Source: a virus
Taxonomy: Duplodnaviria > Heunggongvirae > Uroviricota > Caudoviricetes
Reading direction: 5' to 3' (one strand)
IMG/VR virus record: IMGVR_UViG_3300045988_153358
DNA: 48,302 nt
Of the stretch, positions 1-48,302 are shown in pieces. The position numbers and the translations under genes were made by a program. The number at the start of each line of letters is the position of its first letter. Position 1 is the stretch's first letter. Under the pieces are notes generated by a model. The model was not told where the DNA came from. It saw only the letters and a list, made by a program, of their open reading frames with translations, and searched no databases.

Positions 1-119
1 GGGCGACTGGCGATTCTTTATTAGTGAGCCGGAAATTATTTCAGTTGAGGATTTACCTCCCGGCTGGGGATTACTTCACGTTGTTAACGGAAGAGTACGG
101 AAAGTACATGGATGGCCCA
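1..119. repeat. terminal direct repeat: bases 1-119 identical to 48184-48302; indicates circular or terminally redundant genome (likely assembly overlap)
   Basis: exact identity of the two window ends read directly. Confidence 0.9.
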
Positions 120-3236: not shown

Positions 3237-3824
3237 ATGGAGGCAATTGCATTGTTTAATCTGATTTATGCAGATCCCCCCTGGGAATACAAAGATAAGT
3301 GTAAGGATGGGAATCGTGGAGCTGGTTTTAAGTATCCAACGATGAAAGCTGAGGATATTGCTCGTATTCCTGTCTGGCAGCTTGCTAATCCTGAATCGTG
3401 TTTGTTGGCCATGTGGTGGGTTCCGACTCAGCCAGAAGAAGCGTTGCTGGTGGTGAAAGCATGGGGATTCAGGCTTATGACCATGAAGGGCTTCACATGG
3501 AACAAATGTGGTAGCCGACAACCAGATAAGCTGGTGATGGGGATGGGGCATATGACTCGTGCAAACAGTGAAGATTGCTTGTTTGCGGTAAAAGGCAAAT
3601 TGCCGACCCGCCTTGATGCGGGGATCATTCAGTCGTTTACATCGCCTCGTCTGGAGCATTCTCGGAAGCCTGATGTGGTTCGTGACAAGCTGGTAAGGCT
3701 GTTAGGTGATGTTCCTCGTATTGAGCTGTTTGCTCGCGGTGATTTACCTGATGGTTGGCATGGCTGGGGCAACCAGTGCAATGGAGGTATCCAGTTGCAT
3801 GATGCTCTCTGGCAAGTGGCATAG
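3237..3824 (+). CDS. MT-A70 family N6-adenine DNA methyltransferase
   Basis: DPPW catalytic motif (IYADPPWEY). Confidence 0.8.
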   Translation: MEAIALFNLIYADPPWEYKDKCKDGNRGAGFKYPTMKAEDIARIPVWQLANPESCLLAMWWVPTQPEEALLVVKAWGFRLMTMKGFTWNKCGSRQPDKLVMGMGHMTRANSEDCLFAVKGKLPTRLDAGIIQSFTSPRLEHSRKPDVVRDKLVRLLGDVPRIELFARGDLPDGWHGWGNQCNGGIQLHDALWQVA

Positions 3825-3936
3825 AATTATATAATTATAGATTTATATAAAAAGTGCTTTACAGGTGGGAAAAAATTTCCTATGGTTATACCCGAAACCG
3901 AGCGATACCCGCCCTGGTTAAACCGGAGATAACCCG
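3821..3936 (+). promoter_or_regulatory. promoter-leader cassette copy 1: AT-rich upstream element, TTTACA, 17-nt spacer, TATGGT, conserved leader with GGAG ribosome-binding site
   Basis: 118/119 identical to 35286-35404 and about 100 nt identical to 44816-44918. Confidence 0.7.
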
Positions 3937-4206
3937 ATGAAAGTACAAGACCGTGAAGTAGTAAAAAACCTCCTGCAATACCTGACCTCAAAAAACCTGA
4001 CGGGCAGCGTTGAGTTCCGTGAAGCGTTAAAACATTTCAACGTCACTACGGTTTATCGTTGGGAAAACAAACATTCTGAAAGACCGTATGTGGTGGATGT
4101 TTTTGCGCCTGATATTGAGTGCGGTTTTGAGCGCCATTCATTCAAAAAGAAACATTCCGCTGATGTTTTTTGTGAGGTTGTATGTGCGGCAGGAGATGAT
4201 GAGTGA
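3937..4206 (+). CDS. hypothetical protein (89 aa), first gene after cassette copy 1
   Basis: ORF track; conserved leader and ribosome-binding site. Confidence 0.6.
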   Translation: MKVQDREVVKNLLQYLTSKNLTGSVEFREALKHFNVTTVYRWENKHSERPYVVDVFAPDIECGFERHSFKKKHSADVFCEVVCAAGDDE

Positions 4207-35280: not shown

Positions 35281-35285
35281 CGCTC

Positions 35286-35401
35286 ATAGAATTATATAAT
35301 TATAGATTTATATAAAAAGTGCTTTACAGGTGGGAAAAAATTTCCTAAGGTTATACCCGAAACCGAGCGATACCCGCCCTGGTTAAACCGGAGATAACCC
35401 G
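35286..35401 (+). promoter_or_regulatory. promoter-leader cassette copy 2
   Basis: 118/119 identical to 3821-3939; the single mismatch is in the candidate -10 (TAAGGT versus TATGGT). Confidence 0.7.
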
Positions 35402-35782
35402 ATGAGCATGATTAAAATCCGCAAAAACGCTTTCCTTAAAATTCAAACTATCCTGGCTGGTTCTGTTGGCGTGATTTGCCGTTCTTCTTCAAGCCGCATC
35501 GATGACGGCTACGATGATGAGTATCGTTTGTCCTCGTGCGATGAGGCTTTAACCTGGCTGAAGGAGAATCAGGAACGTGCCCAGGTATATCTGGAAACAG
35601 AGAACGGCAATCAGATGCTCCGTATTAGCGGTCGTTATGGATTTGAAACCACATTCATGGCCTATTTTAATCAGGCTTACTTTGACAAGGAGTTGGCCTG
35701 GTACACTGATCGCATGAGCAAAAGCGAGCCAGCCCCGATTACACCGCCGAACGATAAACCATTTTTATTCCTCGTTAAGTAA
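35402..35782 (+). CDS. hypothetical protein (126 aa)
   Basis: ORF track; conserved leader and ribosome-binding site. Confidence 0.6.
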   Translation: MSMIKIRKNAFLKIQTILAGSVGVICRSSSSRIDDGYDDEYRLSSCDEALTWLKENQERAQVYLETENGNQMLRISGRYGFETTFMAYFNQAYFDKELAWYTDRMSKSEPAPITPPNDKPFLFLVK

Positions 35783-35885: not shown

Positions 35886-36311
35886 TTAGCTTGAATAGGT
35901 AGTTGGTATTTTGAGCATATGGCCAATCTCTTCGAGATGCTTAGATGGATTCTCCCCAGTCTTACCTTCATGTATTGACGCTATATAGTTCAAATTTTGA
36001 GCTGCCCCAAGAATCTCGGTGGCTGATGGAACAAGACGAAAGCCGATATGTAACTTTTTGATATAGAAAGGTAAAGTGGAATATTTCGCCATTAACTGTG
36101 CTGCGGAATCTTTTAGATCATGAATGATTTCTGGCTTTAAGTTCGAGCCAGGATTCACTATTTTTGCTTGGTTACACAATAACAGATTGGATATTTTCCC
36201 TAGCTGTTCCCTGAATGAAATGTAAGGCTCAATAGCTCCTTTGACGATGAGTTGGCCTAGAACAAAAACACTTACACCAGTGACCACGGTGACAAAAGCA
36301 GATGAACTCAT
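35886..36311 (-). CDS. hypothetical membrane-anchored protein (141 aa) in an AT-rich moron
   Basis: N-terminal helix AFVTVVTGVSVFVLGQLIV; own flanking hairpin and promoter region. Confidence 0.55.
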   Translation of the reverse strand: MSSSAFVTVVTGVSVFVLGQLIVKGAIEPYISFREQLGKISNLLLCNQAKIVNPGSNLKPEIIHDLKDSAAQLMAKYSTLPFYIKKLHIGFRLVPSATEILGAAQNLNYIASIHEGKTGENPSKHLEEIGHMLKIPTTYSS

Positions 36312-36412
36312 TTTTTACCTAAAGCCTAAAGATTGGATTGTTAATACATCTTATTTTGTCGTGAGTGGCTATGTCTAATTTATTGAATATCTAGGGAAAG
36401 GTAGAGGATGTA

Positions 36413-36673
36413 ATGACGGGTTACGAATTGAAATTATGGCGTCGTGGGATGAACTGGACGCAGGAGCGAGCCGCCGAAGAGTTTGGGATATCGTTGGCTA
36501 CATATAAGCGATATGAGAAGGGTGAGCCGCCGAGGGTCATTGAGATGGCCATTCGCGTTCTGTCGTTTGACGATATGGTTAAGGATCTTTCACACCTTGA
36601 TAAAGATGTGATTCTGTTAAGGCTGCAAACCCTTGTATGGGAAAAGGTTAAAGTGTCGTCAGAATTGGAATAA
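36413..36673 (+). CDS. HTH (XRE-type) transcriptional regulator
   Basis: 86 aa; HTH WTQERAAEEFGISLATYKRYEKGE; divergent from the membrane protein. Confidence 0.65.
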   Translation: MTGYELKLWRRGMNWTQERAAEEFGISLATYKRYEKGEPPRVIEMAIRVLSFDDMVKDLSHLDKDVILLRLQTLVWEKVKVSSELE

Positions 36674-36734
36674 GGGATCAAATGATCCTTTACGGATCGT
36701 TTTATGGTGGTGTAATGTAAGCGCCAGAAAGACA

Positions 36735-36758
36735 AAAACCGCCTTGCCGGGCGGTTTT
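36735..36758. terminator. bidirectional Rho-independent terminator
   Basis: AAAACCGC/GCGGTTTT stem flanked by A- and T-runs. Confidence 0.6.
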
Positions 36759-37295
36759 CAGTCTGAAATTTAAATCTTGCTTGGTAGGCTGGATTTAAAA
36801 AGACACCTCTTGATTGGGGCGGCTTTCTTGCGTCTAAAGATAATCAAATCTTTTTGCGCCTGCAACCCCTTTTTTACTGGTGCCCATTTCAGACTCACGC
36901 TCGCGTCGTTGTCTTTGCCACTTCGTTGGGTTCGGTGTTTTTGGGCGAAGTGGCGCGCGGGTATGCGTACAAGGGGAAAGTGTGCTGACGCAAGCCAGGA
37001 ACAGCGATCTAAACTAAGTCGAGTCTGAGAAAGGCAGGAGTGCGACAACTCGCCTGTGCTCTATGAGCAGAAGAAGGTATATCAGACGACCAATGGCATG
37101 ATTGTGGGCCACAGGGCGCACACGGCGGCGAAGCATTGGAAACGATGTGGAGCTATCTGGTGGCATGAGTTCCGGTACTCGATCTCGAGCTTTTTTTGAT
37201 GCTTTTGAGAAGGGGCCGGAACTCCGGTAAAGGGCACCCTGTATGGGGGGAGGGGGGGTTGTGTCTGAAGGGTGGTTATCGGTTATGGTGGAATT

Positions 37296-37484
37296 ATGAT
37301 GCGTAGAAAAGCGAGTTTGCTGCAAGCTGTTGGGTCCATTATTTCTTTGTTTCCGGCAGTTGATCATTTTCGTCATATGGCGACACGTTCCAGTATGGGC
37401 TTAGCGCGTGATGCTGACGCTATTCGAAAGGATTTTCAGAAAGTCTCTGGCGTTGATAAGAGAGAAAAGAGTAAGGGGCCGTAG
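37296..37484 (+). CDS. possible small protein (62 aa)
   Basis: ATG with GGTGGA upstream; stop lies in the hairpin 37473-37490. Confidence 0.3.
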   Translation: MMRRKASLLQAVGSIISLFPAVDHFRHMATRSSMGLARDADAIRKDFQKVSGVDKREKSKGP

Positions 37485-37494
37485 CCCCTTGTAG

Positions 37495-38694
37495 TTATGG
37501 TCTGCTCTTCTGTGCCAGCTTATCAGCACATGTTTTTATCAGATCCTGTAGTGTCCTGGCTGGCAGGTTTGCATCCAGTACGCTGAGTATGCTGTTGTGA
37601 TCTGCTTGGTCGACTACTTTGCCTGTCGGTGGTAGTAGCTTGAGCTGAGGATTCAGGTTTTCGTCAAAGCTGATAAGTGCTCTGGCGTTTCTGAGCAGAT
37701 CAAGAAGTAAGGCTGATATCACATTTTCCTGAGTCATTGCTGACAGATTTAGCGCCGCTTTGGTTTTCCCTGTTGCCTTGTCAAACTCCTTGATTAGTTC
37801 CTTCCTGTAGTTCGGTTCCGTTAATAGCCGATTATGCTCTGTTGCCGCGCGGATAATCGTTTTTTCCTGGTACAGTCGTTTAGCCAGATCACGCTCGTAC
37901 TGTGTTTTTAACACGCTGCTGATAGCGTTAAAGGCTTCAATGTAGGCCAGCTTGATATCTTTCACGCCTGGACCGTCGATACTTTCCATGAGCAAGGTAA
38001 ATCCGTCTTTTGTCATGCGATAGATTGTTATTTCGCGGTCGCTTCCTTCCAGCGGTCGTTGCTCTTTAAAGAAATGACGTGCCGCAGCTGTGCGAGGAAT
38101 GCGTAACGCATCGATGGCCATAACGATGGAATTGTTTGTGGTGCTGAATGCCTGGGCAACATCGGCTGAGGTTGTGAGTGGCTCGTTGTTGCACACCTTA
38201 ATGTAAAACATCGGTTTGGCGTTGAGCGTATCGACAACCTCACGAGCATTGTTTGGCGAGACGGTTACGGTCGCGGCCGTTTGTGTGTTCTGGCTGAAAT
38301 AGCAGTCTTCCAGCCGTTCGAACACATCCCAAGCCTGATCGGTTTCAAGCATTTTGGCGTGACGTGCAGCCCCGCGTTCTGTCCAGAGAATGAGGGAGCG
38401 GGCTTTCGGGGAAATTTGTAACCCTCTTAAAGATGGTTGCACATTTTGTGAGTTACTTAAAGTAACCCGCAAATTTTGTGAGTGACTTAAAGTCACTCGC
38501 AAAGTTTTTAACTCATCGCCAGCCACTTTGAAAAAATGCTTTCCTTCAATAAAGCGGTTTGCGTTACGTGAGTAATTTTTTTTGATGTTATCAACGTCTG
38601 TGCCGTATAGCTTTGCCAGTAGTTCAGTAGTGATAACGGGGATCTGGTTATGCAGGATAGGCTGTAGGGTGTTAACGGTCGGAAGCGTTTTCAT
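37495..38694 (-). CDS. antirepressor-like protein (ORF6N/KilA-type N-terminus, Rha-like C-terminal part)
   Basis: ITTELLAKLYGTDVDNIKKNYSRNANRF motif; downstream of a small overlapping ORF and structured RNA region. Confidence 0.65.
   Translation of the reverse strand: MKTLPTVNTLQPILHNQIPVITTELLAKLYGTDVDNIKKNYSRNANRFIEGKHFFKVAGDELKTLRVTLSHSQNLRVTLSNSQNVQPSLRGLQISPKARSLILWTERGAARHAKMLETDQAWDVFERLEDCYFSQNTQTAATVTVSPNNAREVVDTLNAKPMFYIKVCNNEPLTTSADVAQAFSTTNNSIVMAIDALRIPRTAAARHFFKEQRPLEGSDREITIYRMTKDGFTLLMESIDGPGVKDIKLAYIEAFNAISSVLKTQYERDLAKRLYQEKTIIRAATEHNRLLTEPNYRKELIKEFDKATGKTKAALNLSAMTQENVISALLLDLLRNARALISFDENLNPQLKLLPPTGKVVDQADHNSILSVLDANLPARTLQDLIKTCADKLAQKSRP
38443..38502. repeat. two tandem 30-bp dyad-symmetric repeats inside the antirepressor gene
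   Basis: ATTTTGTGAGTTACTTAAAGTAACCCGCAA then ATTTTGTGAGTGACTTAAAGTCACTCGCAA; arms GTTAC/GTAAC versus GTGAC/GTCAC. Confidence 0.8.
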
Positions 38695-38882
38695 TTTGCA
38701 CCTCCCATAACTACTTTGGTTACGAGGGAGATTTTTGCGTCAGAAACAGCGTTATCGTTGCTGGCGATGCGCATAGCTTCGCGCTCGATGATTTCAGCCA
38801 GGCGGAATTTATCGGCGTATGAGGCTTTCTTGAGAAGGATCTTTACGAGGTTGACGTAATAGTCATGGGGTAGGTTTGTCAT
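38691..38882 (-). CDS. small ORF (63 aa) overlapping the antirepressor start; icd-like position
   Basis: 4-nt overlap with downstream gene; AGGGA Shine-Dalgarno. Confidence 0.45.
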   Translation of the reverse strand: MTNLPHDYYVNLVKILLKKASYADKFRLAEIIEREAMRIASNDNAVSDAKISLVTKVVMGGAK

Positions 38883-39046
38883 TGTGATGATTCCCTTAAA
38901 GGTTAAGGATACTCACCACCGTCAGGTTCCAATCATTGGGTGGTGAGACGTGCAGGGTTGGAACTACCGGACACAATGACGAACCGGCGAGTCTTACGAC
39001 TCCCCCGCACGCCCCACCATAATTTGGGTGTAGCAGTGCTTTACGC

Positions 39047-39150
39047 ATAAAAAAACCGCTAACGCGGTATGCGCCATTGTGTCTACGGGGTTCCAATCCC
39101 GACCGTAGATTTTGCTACGGCTCGGAAAGTGTCCACCAATGGCGCATTCA
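39047..39150 (-). ncRNA. candidate c4-like antisense sRNA (5-prime end not determined)
   Basis: minus-strand hairpin ACCGC-GUUA-GCGGU plus U7 at 39049-39068; stem CCGUAG/CUACGG; GAUUGGAACC element repeated in the leader at 38925-38936 and complementary to 38954-38964. Confidence 0.35.
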
Positions 39151-39638
39151 TGTCAATACGGCGGGATTTTAACAGAGACAACCACATAGCGTGGGTTTAT
39201 TGGTAGGCAGAAACAAAAAAACCGCCCTATTGAGGACGGTTCTTTCGTGCTGATCGGATTCGCGGTCCTTTCAGCATAACGTCGTTGTATAAACAACCAC
39301 GCAAGCACAAGCAGCAAGTTAATTTTACCCAAAAGGTAATAATAGTCCACTATTATGCTTCAAAAAATTGTGGTTCTTGTTGTGCCTGCAAACTCACAGA
39401 TTGTGGGTAGGTTACTGATTTTGTGAAAATAAACGAGTTTTTTCGTTTAATTTCTTTCCTATTACTAATCTTAAAATAATCGTAAAATACCTGTGGACCT
39501 TCCCGCCGATTCGCACCCGGGCACCGACTTTAGGGGAGGATTCTCCGTTGCCGTACATGCAAGCACAAGCAGCCGTGCTTGCTCTCGCGTTGTTTTCGTC
39601 GGTGGGGATGCCGTGAAACGGCCTGTAAGGGCCATACA

Positions 39639-39761
39639 ATGAAAAAATACTGTATGTGTATTTTTATCGTTGTTACTGGGGCTTTGTTTACGCCACATGG
39701 GGAGGGTTGGAAGATTACTGATAACGCTCTGAATGTGACGATAAACATTAGCAGCAAGTAG
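39639..39761 (+). CDS. possible small hydrophobic peptide (40 aa)
   Basis: AAGGG Shine-Dalgarno 8 nt upstream; translation MKKYCMCIFIVVTGALFTPHGEGWKITDNALNVTINISSK; strong terminator follows. Confidence 0.3.
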   Translation: MKKYCMCIFIVVTGALFTPHGEGWKITDNALNVTINISSK

Positions 39762-39766
39762 CGATT

Positions 39767-39790
39767 AGGCCCCTTCGGGGGCCTTTTTTA
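39767..39790 (+). terminator. Rho-independent terminator with UUCG tetraloop
   Basis: AGGCCCC-TTCG-GGGGCCT followed by TTTTT. Confidence 0.75.
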
Positions 39791-40010
39791 TGGTTGAATT
39801 TAAACGCTGGAGCGCTTAAGCCTTTCAGAACTGCTTCACGTACCCATTCTGGCCTGGTGGATAGCAGGGCAAATAAGCGACCAGCTTGCAGCCGTTTGAG
39901 GTCGGTTAGACGAGTTTTCAGTAACCGTGTATATTGTTGCTCGGACATAACAAATTCCCCTTGTTGTGTCGCGACGGCCAACAGTTGGCGCTGGAGGCCG
40001 TCACCTTCTC

Positions 40011-40259
40011 TTACTTCTGGTTGTATTGAGCCTTGAGTAACTCAAAAGATTTTGTCAGCACTTCTTTCAATGACATATCCATTGAGCTGGCGAACGTTTT
40101 GTACTCGCGTTTAAATTCAGGGTCGACGTTAAACGCCATTTGTGCCCCACCTGATTTGGTTCTGGTTGGCGTTTCAGTCGGGTCGAAAACCTGCGGTTGT
40201 TCGATCGATGGCGGTACGCCTTTGCTGTTCTTCTTTGGTGGTTTTGATGGTCCGGCCAT
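40011..40259 (-). CDS. ParG-like ribbon-helix-helix partition/centromere-binding protein
   Basis: 82 aa; disordered basic N-terminus, C-terminal RHH-like segment; adjacent to ParA. Confidence 0.55.
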   Translation of the reverse strand: MAGPSKPPKKNSKGVPPSIEQPQVFDPTETPTRTKSGGAQMAFNVDPEFKREYKTFASSMDMSLKEVLTKSFELLKAQYNQK

Positions 40260-40302
40260 GTGTATCCCCTCTTATATAAATCTATAAATCTATAATTATA
40301 TA
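40260..40302. promoter_or_regulatory. AT-rich repeat motif between parA stop and parG start
   Basis: tandem TATAAATC units; same motif family as other intergenic sites. Confidence 0.5.
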
Positions 40303-40956
40303 TTACGCGGCAGTAGTCAGAGCCTCAAGCTGGTTGATAATCCCCTGAATAACGTCGTCTGCCTTTTTGCGTGGCGCAACGTATGAGCATTCAATGAGGC
40401 TTAAGCCCTTATCCTGAGCTTTGCTCAGAGCTGGCTTGTGGGGAATGTACTTATCGACAACAAAGTATGGCGTATTAGCCAGGTACTCTTGGGCTTCAAT
40501 GTAGTCGGCTTCGTTTTCAGCCGCGCCTGAGAACACCATGCAAATTTTCTTGATTGGCACACCCTTTTTAACGATGCCGTGAGCTGTGTTAACGGTGGTT
40601 TCTAGGTCATCGGTAGAGAATCTGGTTGGCAAAATAACCATATCCAGAAATTCAGAGAGCTTCGGTACTGATTCAGATGCGTAGGCACCGCCATCGACGA
40701 TAACCAGGTCGTATACTTCTGATTCGATGATTTTCTGGACTTGTGATGGCGTGCCGCACGGCTGCGCCGCGATTGCAGGTTCGATATTGTTGGCCATTCT
40801 GCGTTGTACCCAACGCGTTACCGTTCCGTTAAGCACATCCATATCGATCAGGCATACATTCCAGCCGGCCTTTGCATAAGCAACTGCTAAAGCACGGGCA
40901 ATTGTTGATTTGGTTACGCCGCCTTTTCCGTTGAAAATACCTACAGAGATAGTCAT
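40303..40956 (-). CDS. parA: ParA/MinD-type partition ATPase
   Basis: deviant Walker A GIFNGKGGVTKST; start at second ATG chosen because of GGAG Shine-Dalgarno. Confidence 0.8.
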   Translation of the reverse strand: MTISVGIFNGKGGVTKSTIARALAVAYAKAGWNVCLIDMDVLNGTVTRWVQRRMANNIEPAIAAQPCGTPSQVQKIIESEVYDLVIVDGGAYASESVPKLSEFLDMVILPTRFSTDDLETTVNTAHGIVKKGVPIKKICMVFSGAAENEADYIEAQEYLANTPYFVVDKYIPHKPALSKAQDKGLSLIECSYVAPRKKADDVIQGIINQLEALTTAA

Positions 40957-40974
40957 TTGTCGAGACTCCATGTG

Positions 40975-41080
40975 TTTGGTTATATAATTCTATAAATCTA
41001 TATTTATAGAACGAGGTAAGCATAACCAACTTTTTGGCGGATGAAAAGCGTTTTATATAATTATATAAATCTATAATCAT
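40975..41080. promoter_or_regulatory. parA upstream region with two further copies of the AT-rich motif
   Basis: 40981-41010 and 41053-41077 carry TATATAATT...TATAAATCTATA-type elements. Confidence 0.5.
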
Positions 41081-47953: not shown

Positions 47954-48302
47954 ATGGCGTTAACACACCGCGAACTCTGTCAGATTGCGTACAAGTTCCT
48001 TAAGCGCAACGGGTTCAAGGTTTGCTTTCATGACCGCTTTATAGCTGTAACCAGTACCGGAGAACAGCCAGATGCTATGGGATTCAGAAATTCAGCATCA
48101 TGCTTGATAGAGGCGAAGTGTTCTCGTGCTGACTTGTTGGCAGATAGAAAAAAGCGTTTCCGTAAAAATCCCTCACTTGGCATGGGCGACTGGCGATTCT
48201 TTATTAGTGAGCCGGAAATTATTTCAGTTGAGGATTTACCTCCCGGCTGGGGATTACTTCACGTTGTTAACGGAAGAGTACGGAAAGTACATGGATGGCC
48301 CA
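47954..48302 (+). CDS. 5-prime portion of wrap-around ORF (171 aa in total, continues at 2-286)
   Basis: ATG at 47954; no stop before window end; PD-x12-EAK motif. Confidence 0.45.
   Translation, partial: MALTHRELCQIAYKFLKRNGFKVCFHDRFIAVTSTGEQPDAMGFRNSASCLIEAKCSRADLLADRKKRFRKNPSLGMGDWRFFISEPEIISVEDLPPGWGLLHVVNGRVRKVHGWP

Follow-up and report, generated by a model that had tools for sequence, protein, structure and literature searches.

An array of palindromic 30-bp units inside the ORF6N-coding segment of a phage antirepressor gene

Three dyads within the ORF6N-coding segment of ant

The DNA analyzed here is a 48,302-nucleotide (nt) viral sequence of the class Caudoviricetes (IMG/VR record IMGVR_UViG_3300045988_153358), referred to below, over its whole length, as the window. 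Its minus strand carries ant, a gene for a protein of 399 residues with an ORF6N domain, a Rha domain and a C-terminal region, and within the ORF6N-coding segment lies an array of palindromic 30-bp units, which is our subject (Table 1). Judged by homology, the product is an antirepressor: it matches the Pfam ORF6N family (PF10543) over residues 12-115 at 4.3e-20 (72.2 bits against a cut-off of 27.8), Phage_pRha at 4.3e-12 and the anti-repressor families of PHROGs down to 1e-60, and its homologues are annotated as Ant or ORF6N. For Ant, no sequence homologue was found in the PDB, and Foldseek returned no significant match.

Two of the 30-bp units stand head to tail on the plus strand, at 38443-38472 and 38473-38502 by inspection of the sequence, and the Tandem Repeats Finder (TRF) call agrees (38439-38508, period 30, 2.3 copies). 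As an earlier, sequence-only reading of this DNA had noted, they are adjacent and encode a duplicated peptide, LRVTLS(H/N)SQN. That reading counted two differences between the units; there are three, at unit positions 12 (T/G), 22 (A/C) and 25 (C/T), and all three hit dyad positions. Positions 12 and 22 are mirror partners whose complementarity is kept (T-A becomes G-C), and for this pair the description as compensatory stands; the change at position 25 instead repairs a mismatch, turning A.C into an A-T pair. The chance of a mirrored complementary pair among three random substitutions is P = 0.028. Each dyad is an odd palindrome about one central base. The arms of unit 2 are perfect, as claimed, but extend to nine pairs rather than 7 bp, and unit 1 falls one pair short of this. 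A degenerate unit that precedes the other two on the plus strand, unit 0, had been overlooked; with it the array comprises three dyads, centered at 38429, 38459 and 38489 and hence spaced by exactly 30 bp. Outer flanks (AAATTTTG...CAAATTT) lengthen the pairing to a quasi-palindrome of roughly 29-37 nt per unit. The array encodes TLRVTLSHSQN-LRVTLSNSQN-VQPSLRGLQIS.

The symmetry is maintained at the level of the nucleic acid, with synonymous codon choice strongly biased toward complementarity. Together, the three units score 27.5 for dyad symmetry, whereas synonymous recodings of their peptide score 13.0 +/- 1.8, and none of the recodings (0/1000) reached the observed value. Throughout the 48-kb window, a search for the 15-mer dyad with up to two mismatches returned only the two known sites, with 0.22 chance matches expected.

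The repeats had been placed between two domains; they lie inside the Pfam ORF6N match. In the AlphaFold model of Ant (mean pLDDT, or predicted local distance difference test score, 77.5), a strand at residues 54-58 is followed by a helix at 60-78 and a strand at 100-104. The repeats fall between the two strands, and pLDDT is below 50 for residues 75-91. On this predicted structure, the repeat loop of the ORF6N domain is permissive and poorly ordered.

Table 1. The ant gene, its repeat array and the features upstream of it (ORF, open reading frame; sRNA, small RNA; aa, amino acids)
Feature	Coordinates	Strand	Basis and details
ant, 399 aa: ORF6N domain, Rha domain, C-terminal region	37495-38694	minus	ORF list, Pfam, PHROGs, annotated homologues
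ORF6N-coding segment (aa 12-115), holds the repeat array	38350-38661	minus	Pfam envelope, AlphaFold model
Segment for Rha-type domain (aa 174-258)	37921-38175	minus	Pfam
Whole array, three 30-bp quasi-palindromic units	38412-38507		Sequence, TRF, folds of both strands, synonymous-recoding test
Unit 2	38471-38507		Peptide RVTLSHS; perfect 19-bp core 38480-38498, gagtgactt-a-aagtcactc, 9/9 pairs; outer arms continue via T.G pairs
Unit 1	38445-38473		Peptide RVTLSNS; core 38450-38468, gagttactt-a-aagtaaccc, 8/9 pairs
Unit 0, degenerate	38412-38446		Peptide QPSLRGL; core 38420-38438, aaccctctt-a-aagatggtt, 8/9 pairs
63-aa ORF upstream of ant	38691-38882	minus	ORF list, sequence, PHROG 7886
C4 antisense RNA gene upstream of the ant operon	38936-39024	minus	Rfam RF01695, 77.8 bits (gathering score, 45)
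isrK-like sRNA gene upstream of C4	39049-39121	minus	Rfam RF01394, 67.7 bits (gathering score, 50)

Variation and conservation of the palindrome in ORF6N genes

Of 5426 complete E. coli genomes, 503 carry members of this antirepressor family, at 683 places in all, Shiga toxin (Stx) prophages included. The ant genes of Stx phages are 84-89% identical to the window over the repeat region and differ from one another by whole units: TRF finds three units in Stx2-1717, two in Stx1_9793 and no tandem array in CP-1639, each with the degenerate terminal unit in addition and all with identical flanks. Among 92 ORFs drawn from 86 sequences (85 loci, numbered with the prefix L, and the window), 29 have one dyad, 34 have two, 22 have three and 7 have four. 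The array is a minisatellite, or variable-number tandem repeat, whose copy number varies from 1 to 4 among near-identical prophages.

The units themselves vary as well. The types compiled from 40 distinct DNA versions (Table 2) keep the complementarity of their arms through nonsynonymous, reverse-complementary codon changes, which pair V with N, H or Y, L with K or E, T with S, and S with R. Unit 1 of the window is the commonest unit among Stx-phage ant genes, and most E. coli alleles retain unit 0 at the end of the array, with perfect versions elsewhere (L138, L141). Because both 30-bp unit types of the window occur alone in other alleles (that of unit 2 in L056, L057 and L061), the compensatory change between them represents old variation in the pool of units rather than a recent event. 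Had homologues kept the repeated peptide while synonymous changes broke the dyad, the proposal of the sequence-only reading that the symmetry is maintained would have been refuted; the opposite is found, the dyad being kept while the peptide changes.

Table 2. Unit types and the peptides they encode
DNA	Peptide
GTT ACT TTA AGT AAC	VTLSN
GTG ACT TTA AGT CAC	VTLSH
GTA GCT TTA AAC TAC	VALNY
CTT ACT TTA AGT AAG	LTLSK
CTA GTT TTA AAC GAG	LVLNE
CTA TCT TTG AGA GAG	LSLRE
GTG TCT TTA AGA CAC	VSLRH
CCA TCT TTA AGA GGG	PSLRG

The ant genes of Yersinia phages vB_YpM_39 (L001) and vB_YpM_41 (L002) are identical to that of the window outside residues 28-100. This segment is a sharply bounded mosaic cassette present in three unrelated versions (window 38400-38610 versus L001 and L002). 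In the YpM41 cassette, a single, different but perfect 27-bp palindrome occupies the same place (TTGAAAATCTCTT-T-AAGAGATTTTCAA, encoding LKISLRDFQ); the YpM39 cassette has only a weak dyad that contains wobble pairs. An E. coli plasmid (AR_0067, NZ_CP032259.1, 26621-27025; L167) is 100% identical to the window over the 141-bp repeat segment (38405-38545). Its gene is annotated as a pseudogene, with an ORF6N part that lacks the C-terminus and a separate Rha-family coding sequence, and IS21 lies just past it. L025 and two other IMG/VR loci carry a second ORF6N-type ORF (…GKHYFLLENEELREFKHSMSLRPSVKIARNVRSLILWTE) with its own dyad, CACAGCATGTCTTTAAGACCTTCTGTG; this ORF is distinct from the annotated Roi, a Rha-N plus ANT protein.

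For a wider sample, one genome per species was scanned, which yielded 80 homologues from Enterobacterales, Acinetobacter, Roseospira, Halodesulfovibrio, Chromatium, Accumulibacter and Paraburkholderia; a further scan of IMG/VR, queried with Roseospira, brought up mostly the same enterobacterial loci. In most homologues, the best palindrome of the segment between the motifs GKH and LWTE is centered 55 or 61 nt past the GKH codon. Its arms reach 16 bp, its loop is 1-5 nt, and its sequence differs from one homologue to the next. At 8, the median best-dyad score of 67 distinct homologues exceeds that of 746 control windows of matched size taken from these loci, which is 5 (p = 1e-21). In a center-free test, 60 of the 67 proteobacterial homologues lie above the 95th percentile of their synonymous recodings; about 10% of homologues have no significant dyad by synonymous recoding.

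Per unit, 10.2 of 12 positions form Watson-Crick pairs, against 5.6 expected from peptide and codon usage. Across 77 distinct units, 88.7% of cells are paired, compared with 58.7% after shuffling and about 35% after sliding, a percentage inflated by the choice of these units on dyad score; the control-window and recoding tests are unaffected by that choice. Cells with a double change number 274 versus 106, a count reached in 0 of 500 shuffles. Pair flips are frequent (38 GC and 28 CG, 38 AU and 35 UA), the closing C-G pair is present in 69 of the 77 units, and the centers are AT-rich. The symmetry is visible even in the protein: at least four reverse-complement-compatible residue pairs occur in 44% of clusters versus 4.5% of shuffled ones, in a set of 139 representative clusters with the GKH..LWTE segment among the 150 best matches.

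Two homologues read the palindrome in different frames. Those of Mixta and Acinetobacter (L106, L131) share 30 of 35 palindrome nucleotides (86% identity), which encode SLRLTNSQLQI in one and EFATDLKSVANF in the other, and their in-frame flanks are only 58-67% identical. The longest array seen, in Candidatus Symbiopectobacterium (L118, match 601-1044), has four consecutive dyads whose arms differ unit by unit (NRVSQRYSV / NKVTNSDFV / NGLTDSQLV / NSMSLRPSV).

A distant ORF6N subfamily, apparently of the Bacteroidota type (...FMFQLT..NLKSQIVTSSWGG..YAFTEQG), was reached with a hand-written consensus query, which real loci matched at 58-78% identity. Here, too, a palindrome lies in the equivalent loop (e.g., GTTTGAGGTCACAAATTGTGACCTCAAAC and TTTCGTGAAGTCGCAATTTGCGACTTCACGAAA), so the palindrome is a feature of the whole ORF6N gene family. 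The median score in this subfamily is 11 versus 5 for controls, and 40 of 42 genes beat their synonymous recodings at p <= 0.01. Over the whole family, palindromes measure 13-33 bp, and up to about 47 bp with mismatches. The symmetry belongs to the DNA and not to the peptide, and it occupies the same loop-coding position in several bacterial phyla with arms that differ.

Templated symmetry and its alternatives

Both strands of the segment 38400-38520 fold into three hairpins, well below shuffled controls (-33.7 kcal/mol and z = -3.9 for the mRNA strand; -44.7 kcal/mol and z = -6.7 for the antisense strand). To this extent the RNA hairpin suggested by the sequence-only reading is possible, although the evidence does not favor it. 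The antisense strand is the more stable in 81 of 107 segments. This advantage is uninformative about strand because a single codon-constrained pair position, k = 10 (CGN versus TCA), causes it, and k = 8 and k = 9 wobble the opposite way. There is no strand-specific excess of G.U: wobble mismatches occur on both strands, A.G and T.C are as common, and mRNA-strand wobbles (k = 8 and 9) coexist with an antisense-strand wobble (k = 10) within one unit. Pair flips by transversion outnumber G.U intermediates. Moreover, the symmetry reaches a center that no hairpin could pair. The distant subfamily pairs k = 1 in 31 of 41 cases and k = 2 in 40 of 41, against roughly 0.2-0.35 expected from codon usage, and the central Leu codon is TTA in 30 of 31 proteobacterial cases, compared with about 18% of the Leu codons in flanking gene sequence. 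The missing G.U signal and the symmetry at an unpairable center argue against a classical RNA stem. Scanning 36300-39900 revealed no U-tract terminator or promoter at 38412-38507 on either strand. No Rfam family matches the array, and an E-value scan of 38300-38700 gave only a chance snoRNA match (E = 0.15). Of the marks of a structured cis-acting RNA, then, covariation is present; strand-specific G.U tolerance with a free loop is not, nor is membership in a described RNA family. Symmetry through the center, flips and the absence of wobble bias fit templated symmetry at the DNA level better than selection on an RNA stem.

To the reading that we put first we assign a probability of roughly 40%: the array would be a minisatellite of coding palindromes that occupies a permissive loop and maintains itself through template switching and slippage. 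The unit would fold back during replication, and intrastrand template switching would copy one arm from the other. A change in a single arm would then be erased, or its complement would be installed in one step, yielding apparently compensatory changes, G-C to C-G flips included, with no fitness valley to cross. The hairpins, flanked by the short direct repeat AAAATTTGC, would promote slipped-strand gain and loss of whole in-frame units, and complete loss of the element would be barred, since some of its codons specify conserved residues (NLR...SQ). Nor would a sequence-specific partner be needed. For the phage, the outcome would be an Ant loop that varies in length and sequence, and the hairpins on mRNA and DNA would be a by-product that may dampen expression. 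The sequences show the symmetry of the DNA, its fixed position, the covariation and the variable copy number, as the structural model does the permissive loop; that template switching and slippage are at work, and that no partner acts in trans, we infer. The near-perfect symmetry found here, beyond what the peptide needs, with the center included and without strand bias, is of the kind that template switching is expected to leave.

Tandem dyads and translated palindromes have precedents. The lambda ori iterons are likewise tandem dyad repeats within a coding region that encode a repeated peptide in a flexible segment, with a copy number that differs among related phages; they present one recognition sequence, bound by the O protein, in an initiator gene. 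In contrast, the ORF6N units have inner arms that differ and that are uncoupled from the rest of the protein, and they lie in an antirepressor gene whose product is only predicted to bind DNA. Rickettsia palindromic elements (RPEs) are mobile repeats of 100-150 bp that are found in frame in many unrelated genes and decay over time. They resemble the ORF6N palindrome in being palindromic DNA translated within a host protein at a permissive site; unlike them, the ORF6N palindrome stays symmetric and, among the E. coli matches listed, falls under ORF6N or Ant genes only. RPEs are mentioned in work on nematomorph mitochondrial DNA (PMC6649704), where near-perfect inverted repeats lie in translated sequence, codon degeneracy optimizes pairing and mostly one codon phase is used. 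For those coding palindromes, template switching was proposed, with deletion barred by coding (2019, PMC6649704). The nematomorph repeats reach a length of 284 bp and are spread across many genes, where they come and go stochastically, whereas the ORF6N palindrome is short, sits at one fixed position of one domain family across phyla, and forms tandem 30-bp arrays. Template switching is known to create and maintain perfect stems (Monttinen & Loytynoja 2022, PMC8794818), and there, too, one-step "compensatory" changes give perfect stems without intermediates; those cases are non-coding RNA genes with a functional stem, and ours is a protein-coding loop.

Several observations weigh against a self-maintaining palindrome. 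Conservation at one position across distant ORF6N subfamilies is much to ask of a neutral process, and covarying structure normally signals function. Mismatches that synonymous changes could repair persist (TCA, not TCG, at k = 10; CGG, not CGA, at k = 8; CCA, not CCC, in unit 0), so that arm conversion would have to be inefficient and slow. The 86% identity of the Mixta and Acinetobacter palindromes across frames hints at a constraint on the sequence besides its symmetry. The roughly one in ten homologues lacking a significant dyad fit a dispensable element without proving neutrality, and no template-switch event was directly observed.

A selected element is the natural counter-proposal, and, tentatively, we hold it possible that the ORF6N genes of several phyla carry one in the coding sequence of the DNA-binding domain, either the domain's own binding site or a hairpin or cruciform switch. 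Equally tentatively, such an element might give portable, promoter-independent self-control, and the 30-bp arrays of E. coli prophages, those of Stx phages included, might be tunable multimers of it. The second of these forms, a cis-acting hairpin or cruciform that throttles antirepressor expression from within the gene, is by itself rather unlikely, if the stronger of the two. It would be a portable control, working behind whatever promoter the mosaic gene meets. On the mRNA, stems of 12-17 bp could serve as targets of RNase III and decay or as obstacles to elongation at low translation; on the DNA, perfect palindromes with AT-rich centers could extrude as cruciforms and block RNA polymerase. 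The fixed position throughout the family, the arms that covary beyond peptide and codon usage, the kept closing C-G pair (69 of 77) with AT-rich centers, the folding of both strands and the conservation of palindrome nucleotides over a frame shift all favor such a switch. So does the range of carriers (the nin region of Stx phages, a P1-like immI operon and loci of the Bacteroidota type), whose sole common context is the gene itself. An RNA stem, however, would lead one to expect the G.U excess that is seen on neither strand, where A.G and T.C are equally common and transversion flips dominate, and the symmetric central one or two pairs are needed by no hairpin. The arms measure anything between 6 and 16 bp, in about 10-30% of homologues the dyad is weak or absent, and neither a terminator nor an Rfam family was found at the array.

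The first form is improbable in our judgment. Here the predicted DNA-binding ORF6N domain would bind, as a dimer, the palindromes in its own coding sequence, with autoregulation or assembly of a nucleoprotein structure as the result. Sites within the binder's own gene do exist, as in the lambda ori iterons bound by O inside gene O and the parS site of Spo0J inside spo0J. The appeal of the idea is that, whatever the context or phylum sampled, the domain and the palindrome are co-inherited. The regular tandem array of variable copy number is iteron-like, and the hypervariable mosaic segment that the window and phages YpM39 and YpM41 have exchanged (residues 28-100) carries putative helix-turn-helix helices along with the palindrome. 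A shared recognition sequence is nevertheless lacking: inner arms differ within one gene (GTGAC, GTTAC and CCATC in the window; four versions in L118), and the same unit can accompany N-terminal and helix sequences that differ greatly (Stx2-1717, CP-1639 and the window), so that the palindrome does not vary with its supposed binder. No second copy lies near promoters or elsewhere; in homologous loci, extra copies of the arm 8-mers were found in 54 cases against about 47 by chance, which is no excess. A contiguous palindrome of up to 33 bp also exceeds what a helix-turn-helix dimer needs. HK022 Roi is said to bind a site within its own gene, as Clerget and Boccard reportedly described in 1996. 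As a precedent, the Roi proteins of HK022 and Stx phages were set aside, since Roi is a Rha-N plus ANT protein and not an ORF6N protein.

The proposals of the sequence-only reading itself, operators for a CI-like repressor or an internal start giving a shorter Ant as in P1 ant1/ant2, are largely refuted and, for all that the dyads are real and the locus P1 immI-like, very improbable: the window holds no other copy of the dyad, immunity and partition regions included; Stx lambdoid phages share these dyads, as do distant ORF6N genes with unrelated repressors, the element moving with its gene into phages of unrelated immunity; and none of the downstream in-frame ATG or GTG codons (residues 115, 124, 162 and 167), which are located within the helices of conserved domains, is preceded by a Shine-Dalgarno sequence. 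A -1 frameshift signal (A AAA AAT, spacer and hairpin) was also considered and rejected, since the heptamer is missing from the window and occurs in just a part of the alleles. The probability left over belongs to an explanation not yet thought of.

Locus context and meaning for the ORF6N family

The surroundings of ant resemble the immI operon of P1 in that a C4 RNA, an isrK-like RNA and a small overlapping ORF lie upstream. The 63-residue ORF and ant are probably translationally coupled because the stop of the former overlaps the start of the latter (ATGA). In P1 immI (c4 RNA, icd, ant1/ant2), a C4 antisense RNA likewise lies upstream and a small ORF is coupled to the antirepressor gene, but control there acts on the leader and via an internal start, whereas the dyads of the window lie about 190-280 nt inside the gene and are associated with no start. 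The window thus shares with P1 the upstream C4 RNA and not the two in-frame Ant products. Moreover, Stx-phage ant genes have such dyads as well, and their place is the nin region and not an immI-like operon. A ryfA-family RNA is found by Rfam near the ant operon on the other strand (39493-39789, plus).

The first ~119 bases of the window (1-119) recur at 48184-48302, an assembly overlap that makes the sequence circularly closed at ~48.18 kb. The window is related to Yersinia phages vB_YpM_39, 41 and 44 and to a 49.9-kb E. coli plasmid. By sequence comparison, the element is a plasmid-prophage whose antirepressor gene lies in an RNA-controlled module similar to P1 immI. Arrays of 8-bp repeats (TATAAATC / TATATAAA) at 40273-40302, 40983-41002 and 41053-41077 flank a parA-like gene (40303-40971) and an 82-residue ORF (40011-40259); they probably serve a small ParA partition system as its centromere or operator. 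A 121-bp direct repeat, 99% identical between 3820-3940 and 35285-35405, contains the AT-rich, partly palindromic ATAGAATTATATAATTATAGATTTATATAA; these copies, 31 kb apart, could be duplicated promoter/operator or partition-type sites. A tRNA gene lies at 2853-2925 on the plus strand (Rfam tRNA, 67 bits).

A full-text literature search on ORF6N, repeat sequences and antirepressor palindromes found no description of the feature. Coding palindromes and their maintenance by template switching are already known; what appears new is a position-fixed palindrome of one domain family across phyla, together with the variable 30-bp arrays of E. coli prophages. The 30-bp copy-number polymorphism is a ready-made typing marker. 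The array also probably interrupts the assembly of these prophages: many Ant proteins in databases are partial and stand at contig ends (e.g., P0003-P0012), which suggests that short-read assemblies break at the array or over multiple prophage copies.

Conserved, covarying structure in a coding region is usually read as functional RNA; here the signal is very strong and extends over the family, yet its features fit a self-maintaining DNA palindrome better. If the neutral reading is true, ORF6N genes would offer a clean bacterial case, open to experiment, in which template switching preserves coding palindromes, and would also be a warning for RNA discovery based on covariation. If instead the functional reading is true, a large antirepressor family would have an undescribed, built-in control element, and, given how widely the family occurs in E. 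coli genomes and their Shiga-toxin prophages, that element could influence prophage induction and toxin release.

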